Shown here: one piece after another, positions 3,260 to 28,078 of the stretch
Position numbering within the stretch: position 1 is the stretch's first letter
Layout: every line of letters starts with the position of its first letter
DNA from: a virus
Lineage: Duplodnaviria; Heunggongvirae; Uroviricota; Caudoviricetes
Length of the DNA stretch: 37,880 bases
IMG/VR virus record: IMGVR_UViG_3300031911_000001
Span: 1 to 37,880 of that record
Reading direction: 5' to 3' (one strand)
The notes under the pieces: model-generated
What the model was told of the DNA's origin: nothing
Seen by the model: the letters and a program-made list of their open reading frames with translations, nothing else
The model's database searches: none
Translations under genes and position numbers: made by a program

Positions 3260-3817
3260 TCACTCAAACTTCGATGCGATTTTGTCGAGACATTTTCTTT
3301 TGATCTTGAAACTGTCAGTATCGAATCCACCGAACAGGACGGCCGCATTGGCATGTAGCTCTGCGTAAGCCGTGAGGATGAGGGTAGGACCAAGGGGATG
3401 CTTGGCAATGTGTTCTCGGTCCTCTGCCTTGGCCGTATGGCACCACATATCGAGCCTCATGAGTTCGATTGTGGTGTGATCCTCCGGGTACAGACTCGCC
3501 CATGTGCTGGAGCTGATCTGTGCGTGTCCGGGGAAGTGACGGCGGCCATCCTCATCGACCTGTAGACAGTAGGGCTTTCCACAGTCATGGAACACATGAT
3601 AGTCATGTGCTGCATCCGGGCGGATTGCCTTCTCCTGTATGCTCTTGAGCTTCTCGAGAATGTCTGGCTTGAAGGACCATTCCATTCTCCCATTGCCCTT
3701 GAGCGTAGCCCAGAGGTCGGCATACCGGTCAGCCACATCGGTCCCATGCTTGTAGATAGAATACCCGGGTGCTTGCTCACAATAGGTCATTGCTTTGATA
3801 AGATCGACGCGGCTCAT
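3260..3817 (-). CDS. HD-type metal-dependent phosphohydrolase-like protein
   Basis: Motifs YKHG, FHDCGKP, RHFPGHA, DMWCH, ELHAN fit the HD-domain pattern. Confidence 0.65.
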   Translation of the reverse strand: MSRVDLIKAMTYCEQAPGYSIYKHGTDVADRYADLWATLKGNGRMEWSFKPDILEKLKSIQEKAIRPDAAHDYHVFHDCGKPYCLQVDEDGRRHFPGHAQISSSTWASLYPEDHTTIELMRLDMWCHTAKAEDREHIAKHPLGPTLILTAYAELHANAAVLFGGFDTDSFKIKRKCLDKIASKFE

Positions 3818-3993
3818 GTCGGCCCCATTTCTGAGTCAAATTCTTGACTCGTGAGCATCAGATGGAATCCGTCTCCGCGATGGAAGACTAGCTTGCCGTT
3901 GCTGAGGGTGCCGATGTATGAGTAGCTACAACGATCCTTGCGGTTCACCCAGCACCCACCGACGTTCAGAATCCAATTACGATTTGAAACCAT
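3814..3993 (-). CDS. Hypothetical protein (59 aa)
   Basis: MVSNRNWILNVGG...; TAATG overlap with the Pth2-like stop and ATGA overlap with the HD gene start. Confidence 0.55.
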   Translation of the reverse strand: MVSNRNWILNVGGCWVNRKDRCSYSYIGTLSNGKLVFHRGDGFHLMLTSQEFDSEMGPT

Positions 3994-4364
3994 TATGCTC
4001 TCCAGAGGTTGTACTTCTTGAAATGGTGCCGAAGGTCTTCCGTGATAGGAAGGGTGGCAAAGGACGTGTAGCCCGGTGGGTAACCGAGGTGCTCGTCTGG
4101 TTCGTAGAAGATTTCGGAATCGATCCCAGCGGCCGTGATCAGATCGCGCGCCTTGAGGAGCTGGTATTCGTTCTTGACTCTGAGGACAATGATCGAAGAG
4201 GTCTGAGCGTATCGTAGTCCGGATTGCCCGGCCTTGAGCCCTGCTTCGAGTGCCGCGTGATTGGACTGTGCCAATTGTTGGGCGAGTGGGATGTCGGTCC
4301 TGATGAAGACATAGCAATACGTCTTATCGAGGATCAGATTGAGGTTCTACAGTTGCTTGGTCAT
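3993..4364 (-). CDS. Pth2-like peptidyl-tRNA hydrolase with an in-frame amber codon at codon 6 (4347-4349); candidate readthrough gene
   Basis: GGAG-6 nt-ATG ACC AAG CAA CTG TAG AAC ... in frame with YCYVFIRTDIPLAQQLAQSNHAALEAG...IVLRVKNEYQL...GI...FYEPD...TSFATLP (Pth2-family pattern). Confidence 0.75.
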
Positions 4365-4419
4365 TTGATGCTCCGGTCGATGATGAAATAAAAACACAGT
4401 TTGGATTGTATAACAGGTC

Positions 4420-4425
4420 TATTTA
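4420..4425 (-). promoter_or_regulatory. T4-type late-promoter-like TAAATA upstream of the Pth2-like gene
   Basis: AGGTCT-TTAAAT-AGACCT hairpin centred on TAAATA. Confidence 0.45.
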
Positions 4426-4650
4426 AAGACCTAGTGAATTCCGCACTTCTTTTTGTGCGTCCAGTTTGCCTTGCTTGTAGGCTCGGTCAATGATGTCGGC
4501 AAGCAGATCGACGTCTTCCTTGGTCAAATCCTTGACCTTGACTACGTCACTATCGAGTCCGAGCCCATCGACGAACAGGAGGTTGGTCCAGGTCTCTTCT
4601 TGAGTGACCTCGTCAATGTCCATCAGGATACTGTGAGTCCATGCTCTCAT
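4423..4650 (-). CDS. Hypothetical protein
   Basis: Start at MRAWTHS (4650) overlapping the previous stop; 75 aa. Confidence 0.65.
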   Translation of the reverse strand: MRAWTHSILMDIDEVTQEETWTNLLFVDGLGLDSDVVKVKDLTKEDVDLLADIIDRAYKQGKLDAQKEVRNSLGL

Positions 4651-4913
4651 TGTGTTGCCTTTGTGGGGAAGGTCCACTTGACGTCGAGCACTTCACGTGC
4701 TTTCTTCTTGCGCTTCAGCTGAATGACTGCGTCTGCATTGGGATGCGTACCCAAGACCAGATCACGGTAGGCATTGTGCTTGCGACGGAGCTTGAGCATC
4801 TTCTCGTGCATCCCACGGAAGAACTCTTGATGTTCGATCGGTAAGGCATCGATGCGAGCCTCGAACTCATTGTGCTCGGTGCAGACCTTACAGGCGCAGT
4901 CATTCTTCATCAT
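4647..4913 (-). CDS. Hypothetical protein (CxCxxC N-terminus, coiled coil)
   Basis: 88 aa ORF with 4-nt overlaps to both neighbours. Confidence 0.65.
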   Translation of the reverse strand: MMKNDCACKVCTEHNEFEARIDALPIEHQEFFRGMHEKMLKLRRKHNAYRDLVLGTHPNADAVIQLKRKKKAREVLDVKWTFPTKATQ

Positions 4914-5212
4914 GTCTCCAATGCGTGTTCATGGACCCATGCCATCCGCTTGGGGTTGTGATGCTTGGCTGCCTCAGAAGCGTAATCATCACAGTTTTCG
5001 TTGAATGGATATTCTTCGTCGAGGCCATCCATCACAAACTGCTGAATAAGTTCATCTCTTAGGCCTTCATGACCGAAGCTGAATGCATTGCTGCAGAGCC
5101 CAGCGTGTCGACCAAAGTGGTGTTCGTTATGGACCGGGGCACCATCTTCGGCCCACTTGAGGTAAGCCTTGTAGAAGTCGGTCAGCTTCTCTGATTGATT
5201 AGCAATTGACAT
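4910..5212 (-). CDS. Conserved phage hypothetical protein
   Basis: FYKAYLKW..DGAP...F.RHAGLC...YPFN...RMAWV is a recurring phage ORFan pattern. Confidence 0.7.
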   Translation of the reverse strand: MSIANQSEKLTDFYKAYLKWAEDGAPVHNEHHFGRHAGLCSNAFSFGHEGLRDELIQQFVMDGLDEEYPFNENCDDYASEAAKHHNPKRMAWVHEHALET

Positions 5213-5214
5213 GT

Positions 5215-5889
5215 TCACCACCCCGCGTTTTCTGCCGACATGTAGACCTGTACCTGCTTGCGTACCTCGTTGCTTCGATTGCCGAATCGCTTCTTGACGT
5301 TGCCGTCAGTGTCCCAGTAGCGGCTTGCTCGGATGAAGAAGCGCCACCCGTTGCCGGTTGCTGCGACACCACGGTGCCACGTCCGGTCATCGAACTTGAT
5401 CAGCGTCTTGTCCGGGGCTTGGATGACGTCGAGGGCCTTGTCCGACACCATGTCGGTTACGTCCTGATGCCACTTCTCGTAGATCGTCTCACCCAGTGCC
5501 GGAACCTTAAAGGATTGCTTGCCAAGGGCAAACTCGGTCGGGGCAAGGTGGGAGTTGACCAGCATCATGATGTGCTCGGCACGGTCAGTCGGCTTCTCGT
5601 ATTCGGGTTGACCGTCGGAGCGGGTACGGGGAACGTCGTCGTGGTGCCAGCCGGGGATGCAAGGGAACCAGCCCGGCATGAGCATGTGAACCCGGCTGTC
5701 GATCACCAACGGCACATTCTGCCATGCCTTGGGCAGGTGGTCCAGGAAGACCCGGGTGATGACGTCACCGTTGTCCCATGCGCCGTCGAGGTCATTGTTG
5801 AAGAGCATTGGCTCATTCTTGATGCGCTCGGTATTGAAGTCGCGCTGGAGGTAGGTGACGAAACTGGCTTTGCTGTCGATGCTGATCAT
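5215..5889 (-). CDS. 2OG-Fe(II) oxygenase-like protein
   Basis: PGWHHDDVPR (HxD), TWHRG (distal His) and WRFFIR (2OG-binding Arg) match the DSBH dioxygenase layout. Confidence 0.65.
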   Translation of the reverse strand: MISIDSKASFVTYLQRDFNTERIKNEPMLFNNDLDGAWDNGDVITRVFLDHLPKAWQNVPLVIDSRVHMLMPGWFPCIPGWHHDDVPRTRSDGQPEYEKPTDRAEHIMMLVNSHLAPTEFALGKQSFKVPALGETIYEKWHQDVTDMVSDKALDVIQAPDKTLIKFDDRTWHRGVAATGNGWRFFIRASRYWDTDGNVKKRFGNRSNEVRKQVQVYMSAENAGW

Positions 5890-6206
5890 ACGAGTTCCTT
5901 GAGTTGATCGATGATCTTGTCGGCCAGATCATAGCGGGCTGCCGTCAGAGCATCTTCTGGTGCGTTGGTCACCACATCCTCGTCCAAATCCAAGAGGTAG
6001 CCCGTCAGGGTGTAGGTGCCACCGAGTGCGGAGTCGATGATGAGGCAAACGTATGCGGCCTCGGTTTCATCGGCACAGCTTGCCGCAACCGCATGACACA
6101 GGTAGTAGTGGGAATCGATTTGCAATTTTGCATCGAGCAGAATTTCGATTGCCCGGGATGCACTGATTCTCTCAGGCACACGGATAGGCTGGATGTCAAA
6201 TTTCAT
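5886..6206 (-). CDS. Hypothetical protein, paralog family member 3
   Basis: AIEIL.DAK...YLCHA...TLTGYL...ARYDLADKII shared with 6593-6925 and 6922-7251. Confidence 0.75.
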   Translation of the reverse strand: MKFDIQPIRVPERISASRAIEILLDAKLQIDSHYYLCHAVAASCADETEAAYVCLIIDSALGGTYTLTGYLLDLDEDVVTNAPEDALTAARYDLADKIIDQLKELV

Positions 6207-6207
6207 A

Positions 6208-6417
6208 TCAATCCCTTATGGTAAGTTCAAAGGCCGGGCAGCTATAGACAGTGCCCGTGATGTCCCAGCAATCGCCCCTGCGGCCACATGCCTTGTCGAC
6301 GATTTTACGCTCTTTCAAGACGCATCCGCGCTGAAGAGCATTGACGTGTTGGGTGTCAACCGGACTGCGCCCACAGGCAGCAAGTAGAAGGACCAGAGAG
6401 AGGATGAGGTATTTCAT
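6208..6417 (-). CDS. Small Cys-rich lipoprotein
   Basis: True start MKYLILSLVLLLAAC (lipobox LAAC); four further Cys residues. Confidence 0.7.
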   Translation of the reverse strand: MKYLILSLVLLLAACGRSPVDTQHVNALQRGCVLKERKIVDKACGRRGDCWDITGTVYSCPAFELTIRD

Positions 6418-6596
6418 TTCTGTTCGTCCTTGTAGAAGCACTTGTACCAATCGAACTTGGAGCCGAGGTCCTTCTTCATCGCTGCGCCCATCTCGTGGCA
6501 CGCTTGGACAGAAGGCATTGAGATCATTGCTGGACCACCGGTGGCTCCCGTACCGAAGCCGGAGCTGATGTAGATGAGGAGGATGACGGTGTTCAC
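6414..6596 (-). CDS. Small hypothetical protein, possibly exported
   Basis: 60 aa with a hydrophobic N-terminus and two Cys; GGAG SD before the GTG start. Confidence 0.6.
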   Translation of the reverse strand: MNTVILLIYISSGFGTGATGGPAMISMPSVQACHEMGAAMKKDLGSKFDWYKCFYKDEQK

Positions 6597-6925
6597 ATTT
6601 TCTCCAGTTGGTCGATGATTTTGTTGGCGAGCATCACCCGTGCTTCCTTTGACTGTTCGACGGTGTCAAAGATACCGATGCAAGAGATACCAAAGAGGGT
6701 GCCAAGATAGCCACCGAGTGATGTGCTCGGATAGATTGCCGATAGGATGATCTTCTTGGTGTAGAAGCGATCATCATAGTAGGCATCTACTTCTTCGACT
6801 GCATGGCACAGATAGATCTGTTCATCCAGATGCAGCCTCACAGCATCTTTCAAAATCCGGATGGCTGTAGACGGCTCGATGTACTCGACGTGGACGGGCC
6901 TGATTTGGAAGTCTGTCAGTGTCAT
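6593..6925 (-). CDS. Hypothetical protein, paralog family member 2
   Basis: AIRILKDA...YLCHA...SLGGYL...ARVMLANKII. Confidence 0.75.
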   Translation of the reverse strand: MTLTDFQIRPVHVEYIEPSTAIRILKDAVRLHLDEQIYLCHAVEEVDAYYDDRFYTKKIILSAIYPSTSLGGYLGTLFGISCIGIFDTVEQSKEARVMLANKIIDQLEKM

Positions 6926-7251
6926 GCGAGGCTCCCGAGGTGTGCGATCATCTTGTCGATCAGATCGTAACGGGCCTGATAGGACTTTTCCGGGCCATCG
7001 TACAGGTCTGAAAGCTCAAAATCGTAATGTTCACGGAGGTAGCCGGTGAGTGTATATTCTCCGCCGATGGCCTGACGGATCATCTTCTGGATGTCCGAGA
7101 CCTCAGCCGGCGTTGCGTTGGTTTCTTCAATCGCATGGCAGACATAGAATCTGCGTGGGATGAACACCTTGGCCATGTTGAGGATTTCGATGGCTCGTTC
7201 TGGCGACGTGTCCCGGCGAAGATCGAAGGGGATGATGACAAATGATTTCAT
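6922..7251 (-). CDS. Hypothetical protein, paralog family member 1
   Basis: AIEILNMAK...YVCHA...TLTGYL...ARYDLIDKMI; GGAG SD. Confidence 0.75.
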   Translation of the reverse strand: MKSFVIIPFDLRRDTSPERAIEILNMAKVFIPRRFYVCHAIEETNATPAEVSDIQKMIRQAIGGEYTLTGYLREHYDFELSDLYDGPEKSYQARYDLIDKMIAHLGSLA

Positions 7252-7273
7252 TCAATTTTCTCCAAAATAAAAA

Positions 7274-7348
7274 TGGTGGCCCCGATCGGATTCGAACCGA
7301 CAACCCGGGAGTTTAGAAGTCCACGCTCTACCGTTGAGCTACAGGGCC
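7274..7348 (-). tRNA. tRNA, most likely anticodon CUA (amber suppressor); CCA end is encoded
   Basis: GGCCCTG TA GCTC AACGGTA GAGC G TGGAC TT-CTA-AA CTCCC GGGTT GTCGG TTCGAAT CCGAT CGGGGCC A CCA. Acceptor, D and T arms pair normally. Standard spacing and the GGA/TCC symmetry put CTA (7314-7316) at positions 34-36. Confidence 0.85.
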
Positions 7349-7356
7349 ATTTTTGT

Positions 7357-7656
7357 TTACACGCCGTAGACTGCCTTGGTTGCAGCCAACCCATTGTTGA
7401 GGATGGTCGTAAGGGCCATCTTTGCCTTTTCGCGAGCCGGGGCCGTCTTGCCGGGCATTTCCTTGACTTCCAACACACAGGGCCAAACGGTGCCGTTGTC
7501 GTTGATCGCATCGACCATCAAACGGCCTTGGACCACATCGCTCTTTTTACCGTAGCGTTCTGCGAGTTCCGAAGACCAAGAATCGTGGAAAGTGATTCGG
7601 GCCGTAGCAAGATCGACTTTGTAACCGATGTTCAGGGTAACGATTTGTTGGGCCAT
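7357..7656 (-). CDS. Hypothetical early protein, co-transcribed with the tRNA
   Basis: MAQQIVTL... with strong SD and promoter; the stop lies 8 nt upstream of the tRNA. Confidence 0.75.
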   Translation of the reverse strand: MAQQIVTLNIGYKVDLATARITFHDSWSSELAERYGKKSDVVQGRLMVDAINDNGTVWPCVLEVKEMPGKTAPAREKAKMALTTILNNGLAATKAVYGV

Positions 7657-7688
7657 TTTCACTTCTCCAAGTGGTTTACAGTGCCTCT

Positions 7689-7716
7689 AGTATAACCGTT
7701 TGAAAGACACCGTCAA
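7689..7716 (-). promoter_or_regulatory. Sigma70-type promoter
   Basis: TTGACG-16 nt-TATACT, with imperfect inverted repeat GTGTCTTT/AGAGGCAC around the -10. Confidence 0.7.
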
Positions 7717-26864: not shown

Positions 26865-28016
26865 TCAGTTTCCGGGTTTGAGGAGGTACTCATTCGAGAT
26901 ACCCTTGAAAGAGAAGTCGTTGTCCGAAGACAGGAGCTTGAAGACCTTGCCTTCACCGATCTTGTTGCGGATCGATGGGCCTACGACCTTGGCCAGCAGT
27001 TCTTCACGGTCCTTGGCGTAGTCCTTGAGCAGGATCGATTCATGGACGATCGGCACATGGTTGAGGCCAAACTCATCGCACAGTGACTTGGTCCACATCG
27101 GGTGCAGGTAGCGCTGCTGCTCAATGTCGAACATGTCATAGACGTAGAACTCGTTGCCGTTCTCGCACTTCTCGTGGTTGTCCTGGATCGACGGGCCGAC
27201 CATCTCACCCTGAATAGCCAGAGCCTTGAGCCCGTACAGGGACATCAGATGCAGGAGCTTCTCGTGGATCTGTTCCTTCTTGACGATGGCCCAGAATGCA
27301 TTGCCTTCGGTATCGACCAGATCAAGGTTACGACTGCAGACACCGTAGTTTGAGAACAAGCCCGGCACTTCGACACCGGCTTCATCGAGCTTCGGTTCGT
27401 AGTATTTGCTGTCGTGGCTCACGACGTAGGCGGTGAGTGACGACCCATCCAGCTTCTGACTGACTTGGAACGCCTCGTGGCCATATTCCACGAACACGTT
27501 CGGCAGATTCTGAACACGTTCCTGGTCCGTCTTGCGGAGGAAGTGAGGCCAGTTGCTCTTGCTGACCATGCCGGTCGAAGCGTCAATCTTCTCCCACTTT
27601 TCGACGCCGAACGTTGTCGCAAGGTCCATGCGGTCGTTGATCTCTTCAAGAGTTTCGCCATAGACAGCCATGCATGTCGTCACGTGGTCTTCGAGCCCTT
27701 GACTCTCTGCGGTGTCGGGCCATGCGATCATCGGGAGCAGGAGGCCTTGGGACAGTTGGCCCTTCATCTTCATCGTCTTGATGCGGACACCCTCTTTGCC
27801 GTTCCACTTGACGGCCCGTGGTGCGAGGAAGGCGAACTGCGGTTCGGTGTGATCGAGGAAAGAGTCAATCTCGAAGTAGACGCCGATGCCGCCGACTTGG
27901 AACTCGCCCTTCTTGGCGATGCATTGCCAGCCATCGATTTTGACCAGCTCGATCAGGTCGGCTCCTTCGATGGGGAGGATTTCCGTCACTCGACGGAGTG
28001 TCACCAGTTTACGCAT
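26865..28016 (-). CDS. ATP-dependent RNA ligase (Rnl2/DRB0094-like family)
   Basis: N-terminal MRKLVT.R....I.PIEGAD.IE...IDGW.C..KKGEF; motif I SQKLDGSS; SRN; IQGEM.GP.IQ; F.VYD; EGKV; FKGISN.YL. Confidence 0.85.
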   Translation of the reverse strand: MRKLVTLRRVTEILPIEGADLIELVKIDGWQCIAKKGEFQVGGIGVYFEIDSFLDHTEPQFAFLAPRAVKWNGKEGVRIKTMKMKGQLSQGLLLPMIAWPDTAESQGLEDHVTTCMAVYGETLEEINDRMDLATTFGVEKWEKIDASTGMVSKSNWPHFLRKTDQERVQNLPNVFVEYGHEAFQVSQKLDGSSLTAYVVSHDSKYYEPKLDEAGVEVPGLFSNYGVCSRNLDLVDTEGNAFWAIVKKEQIHEKLLHLMSLYGLKALAIQGEMVGPSIQDNHEKCENGNEFYVYDMFDIEQQRYLHPMWTKSLCDEFGLNHVPIVHESILLKDYAKDREELLAKVVGPSIRNKIGEGKVFKLLSSDNDFSFKGISNEYLLKPGN

Positions 28017-28019
28017 TAG

Positions 28020-28045
28020 AAAACCCCTTGTTGTTGAAGGGGTTA
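28020..28045 (-). terminator. Hairpin overlapping the RNA-ligase RBS (terminator or RBS-sequestering)
   Basis: AACCCCTT-CAACAAC-AAGGGGTT-TTCT immediately before the ATG. Confidence 0.45.
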
Positions 28046-28078
28046 GTCTAAGGGGTGGCGCCTTCAATGGCGCGTCAG

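Follow-up and report, generated by a model that had tools for sequence, protein, structure and literature searches.

We analysed a gene whose reading frame is interrupted near its start by an in-frame amber (TAG) codon, together with a transfer RNA (tRNA) bearing the anticodon CUA, in the first 37.9 kb of the 167,950-bp virus record IMGVR_UViG_3300031911_000001; this stretch of 37,880 nucleotides is referred to as the window and the whole genome as G000. The gene content of the genome is T4-like, with UvsX, a gp41-type helicase, gp46/47-type proteins, a gp5-like lysozyme and an RNA ligase, and megablast of the region against GenBank phages returned no match. The interrupted gene encodes a protein with the fold of the peptidyl-tRNA hydrolase Pth2. 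The elements at the centre of the locus are the following:

7274-7348, minus strand: tRNA with anticodon CUA, loop UUCUAAA, discriminator A73 and an encoded CCA (ARAGORN; Rfam RF00005, 58.4 bits)
4371-4374, minus strand: Shine-Dalgarno (SD) sequence GGAG, with a 6-nt spacer to ATG 4364
4350-4364, minus strand: leader of ATG plus four sense codons (M-T-K-Q-L), read from the sequence
4347-4349, minus strand: in-frame TAG at codon 6, next base A, read from the sequence
3993-4346, minus strand: remainder of the Pth2-fold gene, from codon 7 to codon 123, and its TAA stop (AlphaFold2 (AF2), Foldseek, Pfam PTH2, PHROGs 34073 and 1866)

On the minus strand the leader reads GGAG (4374-4371), 6 nt, ATG (4364-4362), ACC AAG CAA CTG TAG AAC, which matches base for base what an earlier interpretation made from the letters of the window (the sequence-only reading) had described. 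ATG 4364 is in frame with the 123-codon gene, which terminates with a TAA at 3995-3993, and the first ATG, GTG or TTG 3' of the TAG in this frame is TTG 4274. In the AF2 model, strand 1 of the fold comprises residues 15-22 and lies upstream of TTG 4274, confirming the earlier claim that this start falls after the conserved first strand; a product begun there would therefore be without strand 1 and part of helix 1. Because the interval between the TAG and strand 1 holds no usable start, and because the SD sequence serves ATG 4364, the full-length protein requires decoding of the UAG, as had been proposed. The gene is present in a single copy in the genome, and a 99%-identical full-length match holds one TAG.

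The same arrangement was found in relatives. Among cultured phages, the uncultured phage LR756511, and IMG/VR and metagenome contigs, 23 distinct homologous leaders were identified, each with an SD sequence and ATG, 1-6 sense codons (including the ATG) and an in-frame stop before the same conserved strand. The stop lies at codons 3-7 and is TAG in 20 leaders, TAA in 3 and TGA in none; the short open reading frame (ORF) that it closes is in frame with the Pth2-fold gene in 23/23. The base 3' of the stop is a purine in every leader (23/23) and A in 20 of them; in suppressor work in Escherichia coli, a purine after the stop is the context that favours amber suppression. Seven of these leaders, from the start codon to the codon after the stop, are:

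Ralstonia phage RsoM2USA: ATG TTG TAG ATT
Yersinia phage fHe-Yen9-03: ATG TCT CAC TAG ATT
Serratia phage BF: ATG ACG CAC TAG AAT
Pectobacterium phage CBB: ATG GCA CAA TAG AAT
Salmonella phage Arash: ATG CTG TAG AAC
Acinetobacter phage ME3: ATG ACT TAG ATT
Uncultured 595-kb phage (LR756511): ATG ACT CAC TAG GTT

Downstream of the stop, the frame shows approximately 70% amino-acid identity with saturated synonymous sites, and the ratio of nonsynonymous to synonymous substitution rates (dN/dS) is about 0.1 where measurable. Given that 23 leaders share an in-frame early stop and that this is the only gene in the genome with such a signature, the arrangement is far beyond chance, and the 23 leaders together with the purifying selection on the frame exclude sequencing error and pseudogene decay. 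The conservation of its position and the selection downstream of it thus indicate that the TAG leader is a programmed in-frame stop.

The homologues in databases fall into two groups: in one the N-terminus is clipped, and in the other a Gln stands close to the start. Upstream of each clipped protein, the contig displays an SD sequence and an ATG that is followed, after a few sense codons, by a stop in the same frame. As for the second group, the possibility that these homologues have Gln at the stop position was rejected, as three of them (P0003, P0004 and P0007, encoded on contigs L118, L201 and L119, respectively) were reproduced from their contigs only with TAG read as Q, the short contigs having been translated with TAG as Gln. 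These 'Gln' proteins therefore represent TAG translated as Q and carry no information on the residue inserted. RsoM2USA, fHe-Yen9-03 and BF have no annotation of the gene, and in CBB, ME3 and Arash it is truncated (50-aa piece named peptidyl-tRNA hydrolase).

We also assessed the tRNA complement of the genomes that carry the TAG form. A tRNA with anticodon CUA (tRNA-CUA) was found in 13/13 TAG-carrying genomes or contigs with examinable tRNAs, at the following distances from the Pth2-fold gene where these were obtained:

This genome (G000): tRNA-CUA present, gene 2.9 kb away
G001: tRNA-CUA present
BF: tRNA-CUA present, gene 3.3 kb away
CBB: tRNA-CUA present, gene 3.7 kb away
RsoM2USA: tRNA-CUA present
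Arash: tRNA-CUA present, gene 1.0 kb away
ME3: tRNA-CUA present, one of only 4 tRNAs, gene 0.42 kb away
LR756511: tRNA-CUA present
G002: tRNA-CUA present
G003: tRNA-CUA present
G004: tRNA-CUA present
L047, a 4-kb contig: tRNA-CUA present, gene 1.1 kb away
L124/L200: tRNA-CUA present, gene 0.55 kb away (L200 is binned into a Chloroflexi metagenome-assembled genome)

ME3 is the most telling case of co-occurrence. Two small fragments, only 13% and 22% complete, showed no tRNA-CUA, an absence that carries no weight at this completeness, and no CUA tRNA was found in RaK2 or Hallingskeid, which carry stop-less homologues. The sequence-only reading had asked whether an SD-ATG-few codons-stop unit is kept in frame upstream of the homologues and accompanies CUA tRNAs, and both proved to be the case. 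It had further tied the TAG gene to the phage's own suppressor tRNA; here the co-occurrence stands, and the decoding itself is a prediction from sequence.

The tRNA of the window was recovered with ARAGORN, and its cloverleaf passes the Rfam tRNA model RF00005 (58.4 bits; gathering score 29), in agreement with the earlier claim of a CUA-anticodon tRNA approximately 3 kb upstream of the Pth2-fold gene (2.9 kb) on the same strand. Its anticodon loop has 7 nt with U33 and a purine at position 37, and the tRNA, like the others of the phage, has an encoded CCA. ARAGORN predicted 27 tRNAs in the genome, 26 of which are clustered together between 45 and 56 kb on the opposite strand, tRNA-CUA alone lying outside it. 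Across the phages, 14/16 CUA tRNAs have the loop CUCUAAA, their acceptor stems are unrelated and their discriminators differ. By inference, tRNA-CUA would be expressed, charged and able to decode the leader UAG. ARAGORN also reported a permuted transfer-messenger RNA (tmRNA)-like gene in the tRNA cluster, outside the window (G000:C1:47937-48349; tag ANDAQMRIAA), and a second tmRNA-like gene at L047:41-499 (tag AANDSVFEVRLAA), which adjoins the tRNA-CUA and the TAG-gated Pth2-fold gene of that contig.

The protein encoded downstream of the TAG was assigned mainly by its structure. The AF2 model, built on 24 homologues, had a pLDDT of 92.9 and a pTM of 0.84, and a Foldseek search of this model against the Protein Data Bank (PDB) returned Pth2 or Bit1 at ranks 1-12 and 14, with the uncharacterised protein Atu0240 at rank 13 (E at most 1e-4 and TM up to 0.76 for these top 14 matches; E 1e-6 to 1e-4 and TM 0.6-0.7 for the Pth2 structures). 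A profile of the 24 homologues matched PDB Pth2 chains at E of about 0.002. The Pfam PTH2 family (PF01981) aligned positions 4-102 of its 115-position profile with residues 18-109, with a score under the gathering score (20.8 versus 23 bits, E 4.8e-4). The conserved catalytic residues of Pth2 are a Lys in the Gly-Lys loop and an Asp in the D-A-G motif. HMMER alignments placed the Gly-Lys loop in a gap of the phage family and the Asp of the invariant E88 P89 D90 (E-P-D) of that family near the Pth2 Asp. Archaeal and eukaryotic Pth2 (PF01981; PDB 2zv3, 1wn2, 1xty, 1q7s) and the phage protein are thus alike in the alpha/beta fold and in a weak profile similarity over the whole domain, but the phage protein aligns with a shortened Gly-Lys loop and reads E-P-D in the D-A-G region. 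As modelled, the protein is clearly Pth2-like by fold, and its enzymatic activity is putative. The description of a 'Pth2-like gene' in the sequence-only reading therefore holds for the fold, as judged by AF2 and Foldseek, but the Pfam score lies below the cut-off and the Gly-Lys loop falls in an alignment gap, and for these two reasons we name the protein Pth2-fold rather than Pth2.

Two further reading frames follow the Pth2-fold gene on the same strand:

3814-3993, minus strand: 59-aa ORF, a candidate gene, overlapping at its ATG with the stop of the Pth2-fold gene (TAATG) and at its stop with the start that follows (ATGA)
3260-3817, minus strand: HD-domain protein of 185 aa (PHROG 14850 at E 1e-51, and structure matches)

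The structure matches of the HD-domain protein in the ESM Atlas were HD/PolyA_pol proteins (TM 0.65-0.81), and in predicted structure it is similar to the HD domain found in bacterial CCA-adding and poly(A) polymerase enzymes. For the neighbouring genes, Pfam gave no matches and PHROGs gave unnamed families only. The TAATG and ATGA overlaps suggest that the Pth2-fold gene, the 59-codon ORF and the HD gene are translationally coupled, such that translation of the latter two would probably follow that of the first. The HD gene is syntenic or fused with the Pth2-fold gene in 12 loci; it is a neighbour in BF, CBB, Yen9-03, RsoM2USA, G001, L040, L118, Arash and ME3, and in the Xanthomonas phage XacN1 (L067, AP018399 243756-244595) the HD domain precedes the Pth2-fold domain in a single fused ORF without a stop, which supports a joint function of the two genes of the window. 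In the Erwinia phage Hallingskeid (L070), the Pth2-fold domain follows a long N-terminal region that does not match the HD protein of the window. The HD gene of the window has no TAG; those of several relatives contain an in-frame TAG of their own, located at codon 3-4 in G001, L040 and RsoM2USA and at codon 47 in BF (L053:1321-1887), CBB (L054) and fHe-Yen9-03 (L052), where GenBank splits the HD gene into two small coding sequences. These additional stops in the relatives indicate that tRNA-CUA may serve the operon repeatedly. The pairing of the Pth2-fold and HD genes suggests that the two presumed enzymes work on tRNA 3' ends. The early region that contains the tRNA and the Pth2-fold/HD genes also encodes an RNA ligase (26865-28067 of the window, minus strand; PF09414 plus a PHA02142 OB domain), which adds to this set of tRNA-repair-type functions.

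Candidate transcription signals and one further ORF accompany the tRNA and the Pth2-fold gene:

7689-7716, minus strand: sigma70-like site TTGACG-16-TATACT (10/12 match), upstream of the ORF at 7357-7662 and the tRNA
7357-7662, minus strand: ORF of 101 aa, function unknown, ending 8 nt before tRNA-CUA
4420-4425, minus strand: TAAATA, candidate core of a late-type promoter, 55 nt upstream of ATG 4364

The 101-aa ORF, which had no Pfam or PHROG match, and tRNA-CUA are probably co-transcribed. The site at 7689-7716 is a match to the consensus only, sigma70-like matches being no commoner in the region than in its shuffles. The TAAATA at 4425-4420 overlaps the stop of the preceding ORF. The motif has the distribution of a genuine upstream signal: of its 28 genomic copies, 19 are found no more than 80 nt before a called start, many of them at 130-158 kb, and it is under-represented elsewhere. 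Nowhere in this T4-like genome does the T4 late consensus TATAAATA occur. An early sigma70 promoter for the tRNA and a late-type TAAATA element for the Pth gene had been proposed; the match at 7716-7689 and the distribution of TAAATA (19/28) are consistent with the two elements and with the proposed early and late timing.

To place the interrupted gene within the coding of the whole genome, stop usage was tabulated from a crude gene call, which yielded 133 TGA, 82 TAA and 11 TAG stops; coding density in the crude call with code 11 was 85%. The genes ending in TAG are trailed by short non-coding extensions, and no release-factor gene was found in the phage genome. A leader of the type SD-ATG-short ORF-TAG before a coding frame without a start of its own is found solely at the Pth2-fold gene across the 168-kb genome. 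Genome-wide reassignment of TAG (code 15) was rejected, as one gene is interrupted by TAG and TAG is kept as a terminator, and the phage uses the standard code apart from one gene. Two other frames joined by a TAG were considered and rejected: 85516-86352(+), which looks like an antisense shadow frame, and 93476-94261(-), which is a pair of neighbouring genes, an ATG being located one codon past the TAG. Within the window, no second TAG-bearing leader was found, the only other match (2637, minus strand) being a probable hairpin before a gene with its own SD sequence and ATG. This 7-bp inverted repeat, AGGAGCC ... GGCTCCT, at 2608-2660 on the minus strand, encloses GTG TCA CGT ATA CTG TAG, a stretch in frame with the gene at 1798-2607 and nine codons ahead of it; the element is more likely to be a hairpin than another gate.

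Taken together, these observations led us to propose that the amber suppressor tRNA encoded by the phage gates synthesis of the Pth2-fold protein, so that the output of the operon would depend on tRNA-CUA. According to this proposal, ribosomes would initiate at the SD-served ATG 4364, make M-T-K-Q-L and reach UAG-A, where release factor 1 (RF1) would terminate a useless pentapeptide unless the tRNA-CUA encoded at 7274-7348 inserted an amino acid; with the tRNA acting, translation would run on into the 117-residue Pth2-fold domain. As the stop lies in the non-conserved N-terminal tail, any inserted residue would be tolerated and the aborted products would be tiny. Because the pairing of the TAG with a tRNA-CUA recurs in many large phages, including cultured ones, the module is probably a built-in switch. 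A timing switch is a plausible purpose; the candidates also include a dose-matcher that would limit the side effects of suppression and a safety catch on a tRNA-directed enzyme.

Several observations weigh against gating by tRNA-CUA. The anticodon stem of the window's tRNA has only 3/5 standard pairs, with U27-C43 and C31-C39 mismatched; C31 stands opposite A39 or C39 in 6/16 phage CUA tRNAs (including those of the window, L024, L073, L082 and L103), compared with a 31-39 mismatch in just 11/235 other tRNAs of the same phages. In three lineages the leader stop is TAA and the gene is still under selection, and one of these TAA forms shares a homologous leader with a TAG form; since a CUA anticodon is unable to read UAA, a CUA suppressor is not the whole story for the family. 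Approximately 30 kb of the single long TAA contig contained no tRNA, and searches for further TAA forms gave none: in IMG/VR, a degenerate DNA pattern yielded chance matches only (the homologue alignment is too diverse for a DNA-pattern scan) and protein queries yielded nothing, and metagenome and genome scans added further TAG forms only. XacN1 and G009 carry CUA tRNAs though their copy of the gene has no stop, indicating that tRNA-CUA is not exclusive to this target; the rule is one-way, in that a TAG leader implies a tRNA-CUA and not the reverse. In addition, about 9-11 genes of the genome, one of them encoding 697 aa, still end in TAG, so that strong suppression would carry a cost. As for the base after these stops, C follows 6/9 well-supported TAG stops (among them those of 80138-82231+, 116086-116985+ and 55191-55673+) versus 30/197 other stops (p = 0.001) in this genome, a following C being a poor context for suppressor tRNAs, and this bias was not replicated in G001, BF, Arash or ME3, and RaK2, a control without the tRNA, looked similar. 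On account of the weak anticodon stem, of the TAA forms and of a basis in sequence comparison and structure prediction, we give the gating of the Pth2-fold gene by tRNA-CUA a probability of roughly 0.6.

Four other explanations were weighed. If termination on a chain of 2-6 residues were inefficient, host near-cognate tRNAs (of Gln, Lys or Tyr type) might read the stop without the phage tRNA, and constitutive low readthrough would keep the dose of a potentially harmful enzyme low, tRNA-CUA mainly serving another job. Such leakiness would accommodate the selected TAA variants, which a CUA tRNA could not serve, the CUA tRNAs retained by XacN1 and G009 without a stop in the gene, and the fact that the stop is never beyond 7 codons from the start. 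However, it does not account for the presence of tRNA-CUA with every examinable TAG form (13/13), for the linkage below 1 kb in ME3 and L124/L200 and at 1.1 kb in L047, or for the TAG at codon 47 of the HD gene in BF, CBB and Yen9-03, which is far from any effect of the start; moreover, TGA, the leakiest stop in bacteria, is used in 0/23 leaders. We therefore regard leaky termination as unlikely. A restart after termination, with the short ORF as a coupling device, either directly at the following codon, frequently AUU, AUC or AUA, or at some non-canonical codon close by, would yield a product without the leader, and the codon after the stop is indeed ATT, ATC or ATA in 16/23 leaders, including all three TAA forms. 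In the window, however, the stop is followed by AAC CTC AAT, with the first candidates, CTG and ATC, 4-5 codons on and without an SD sequence, and the post-stop codon is AAT in BF and CBB, AAC in Arash, GTT in LR756511 and G003, and GGT in L124. Reinitiation does not require the short ORF to be in frame, as it is in 23/23, and leaves both the linked tRNA-CUA and the codon-47 TAG of the HD gene unexplained, which makes it very improbable.

The leader might also act as a sensor in the manner of bar minigenes or of release factor 2 (RF2), in which passage would be set by peptidyl-tRNA drop-off, Pth activity or RF1 and the enzyme would regulate itself, a mechanism that can overlay readthrough. Many relatives do have a two-codon ORF behind a strong SD sequence (ATG TTG TAG), which is the layout of bar minigenes, and the gated product carries a peptidyl-tRNA hydrolase fold. 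Against this, the length (1-6 sense codons) and the peptide of the leader vary freely, the second gated gene, HD, is no peptidyl-tRNA hydrolase, and the TAA forms are read by RF2 too, so that sensing of RF1 cannot be general; this mechanism has a small probability in our view. We found no support for the suggestion in the sequence-only reading of a sensor of low RF1 activity or of translation rescue; three lineages use TAA, which RF2 also reads and a CUA anticodon does not decode. Finally, one window by itself cannot exclude a base-call error, and some gene callers translated relatives with TAG as Q, as would be expected for an artefact, a decaying gene or whole-genome TAG reassignment (code 15). 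The recurrence of the stop in 23 independent leaders from isolates and metagenomes, the purifying selection on the frame, the approximately 9-11 genuine TAG stops and the lack of any other TAG-interrupted gene leave this explanation with hardly any probability.

If gating by tRNA-CUA is accepted, the Pth2-like/HD pair, both members of which plausibly act on tRNA 3' ends, would be made in proportion to suppressor-tRNA activity. A wider and more tentative proposal, which we consider possible but doubtful, is that of a natural, self-contained translational gate in which a private amber-suppressor tRNA licenses an operon for tRNA 3'-end maintenance, whose enzymes, a hydrolase of Pth2 fold and an HD phosphohydrolase like that of CCA-adding enzymes, would appear only when, and as much as, the phage tRNAs work. 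The role of such an operon might be to clear by-products of suppression or to undo host blocks of tRNA 3' ends, and the TAA forms would then imply a second reader, either an ochre tRNA or a factor-dependent bypass.

If the gating proposal is correct, a conserved dedicated target would explain why standard-code phages, hitherto without known targets, keep suppressor tRNAs, and stop-codon recoding would act here as a regulator of one operon, possibly a first step toward the genome-wide recoding of gut phages. For databases, the consequence is that the Pth2-fold gene is N-terminally clipped or silently read with TAG as Q, a programmed stop thereby mimicking a conserved glutamine. The Pth2-fold/HD pairing, fused in XacN1, would point to a so far unstudied role of phage enzymes at tRNA 3' ends. 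As several carriers are cultured phages with tractable hosts (BF, CBB, RsoM2USA and ME3), the gate is directly testable there. Full-text literature searches brought up no paper that connects Pth2-like genes to suppressor tRNAs of phages or describes the module.

The closest known systems share parts of this arrangement. Gut phages (crAss-like, Lak and others) read TAG as Gln ('code 15') via their own suppressor tRNAs, and their in-frame stops have been proposed as a post-transcriptional gate on particular genes, and as a regulator of late genes, that is on once the suppressor tRNA is made (Borges et al., bioRxiv 10.1101/2021.08.26.457843). In both cases, a phage-encoded suppressor tRNA permits the reading of in-frame stops; however, in code-15 phages dozens to hundreds of late or lysis genes are interrupted, code-11 coding density collapses and TAG is given up, whereas here TAG still terminates genes, a single gene is gated (at most one small operon in relatives) and the stop is placed at leader codons 3-7. 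The RF2 gene prfB contains an in-frame UGA that is passed by a +1 frameshift, and it senses its own product. It is alike in that an early in-frame stop in a translation-factor gene ties synthesis to the state of the termination machinery, but in the present case the frame is unchanged and a dedicated tRNA is supplied. The bar minigenes of phage lambda are SD-AUG-one-or-two-codons-stop units that give short peptidyl-tRNAs handled via peptidyl-tRNA hydrolase. Unlike these stand-alone units, the short ORF described here is in frame with a conserved enzyme in 23/23 leaders, and that of the window has five sense codons. XacN1 is likewise a large standard-code phage with many tRNAs, including CUA tRNAs, for which its authors read through annotated amber stops and found no target (PMC5852040); its homologous Pth2-fold domain differs in being fused to HD and lacking the stop. 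In relatives that have the stop, such readthrough of annotated amber stops misses the proposed Pth2-fold targets because the stop lies where a gene that is unannotated or truncated begins. A synthetic feed-forward gate engineered in E. coli expresses an amber-codon gene only with a co-regulated suppressor tRNA and thereby suppresses leak (PMC7969014); the TAG leader and tRNA-CUA would constitute a natural and widely conserved counterpart.

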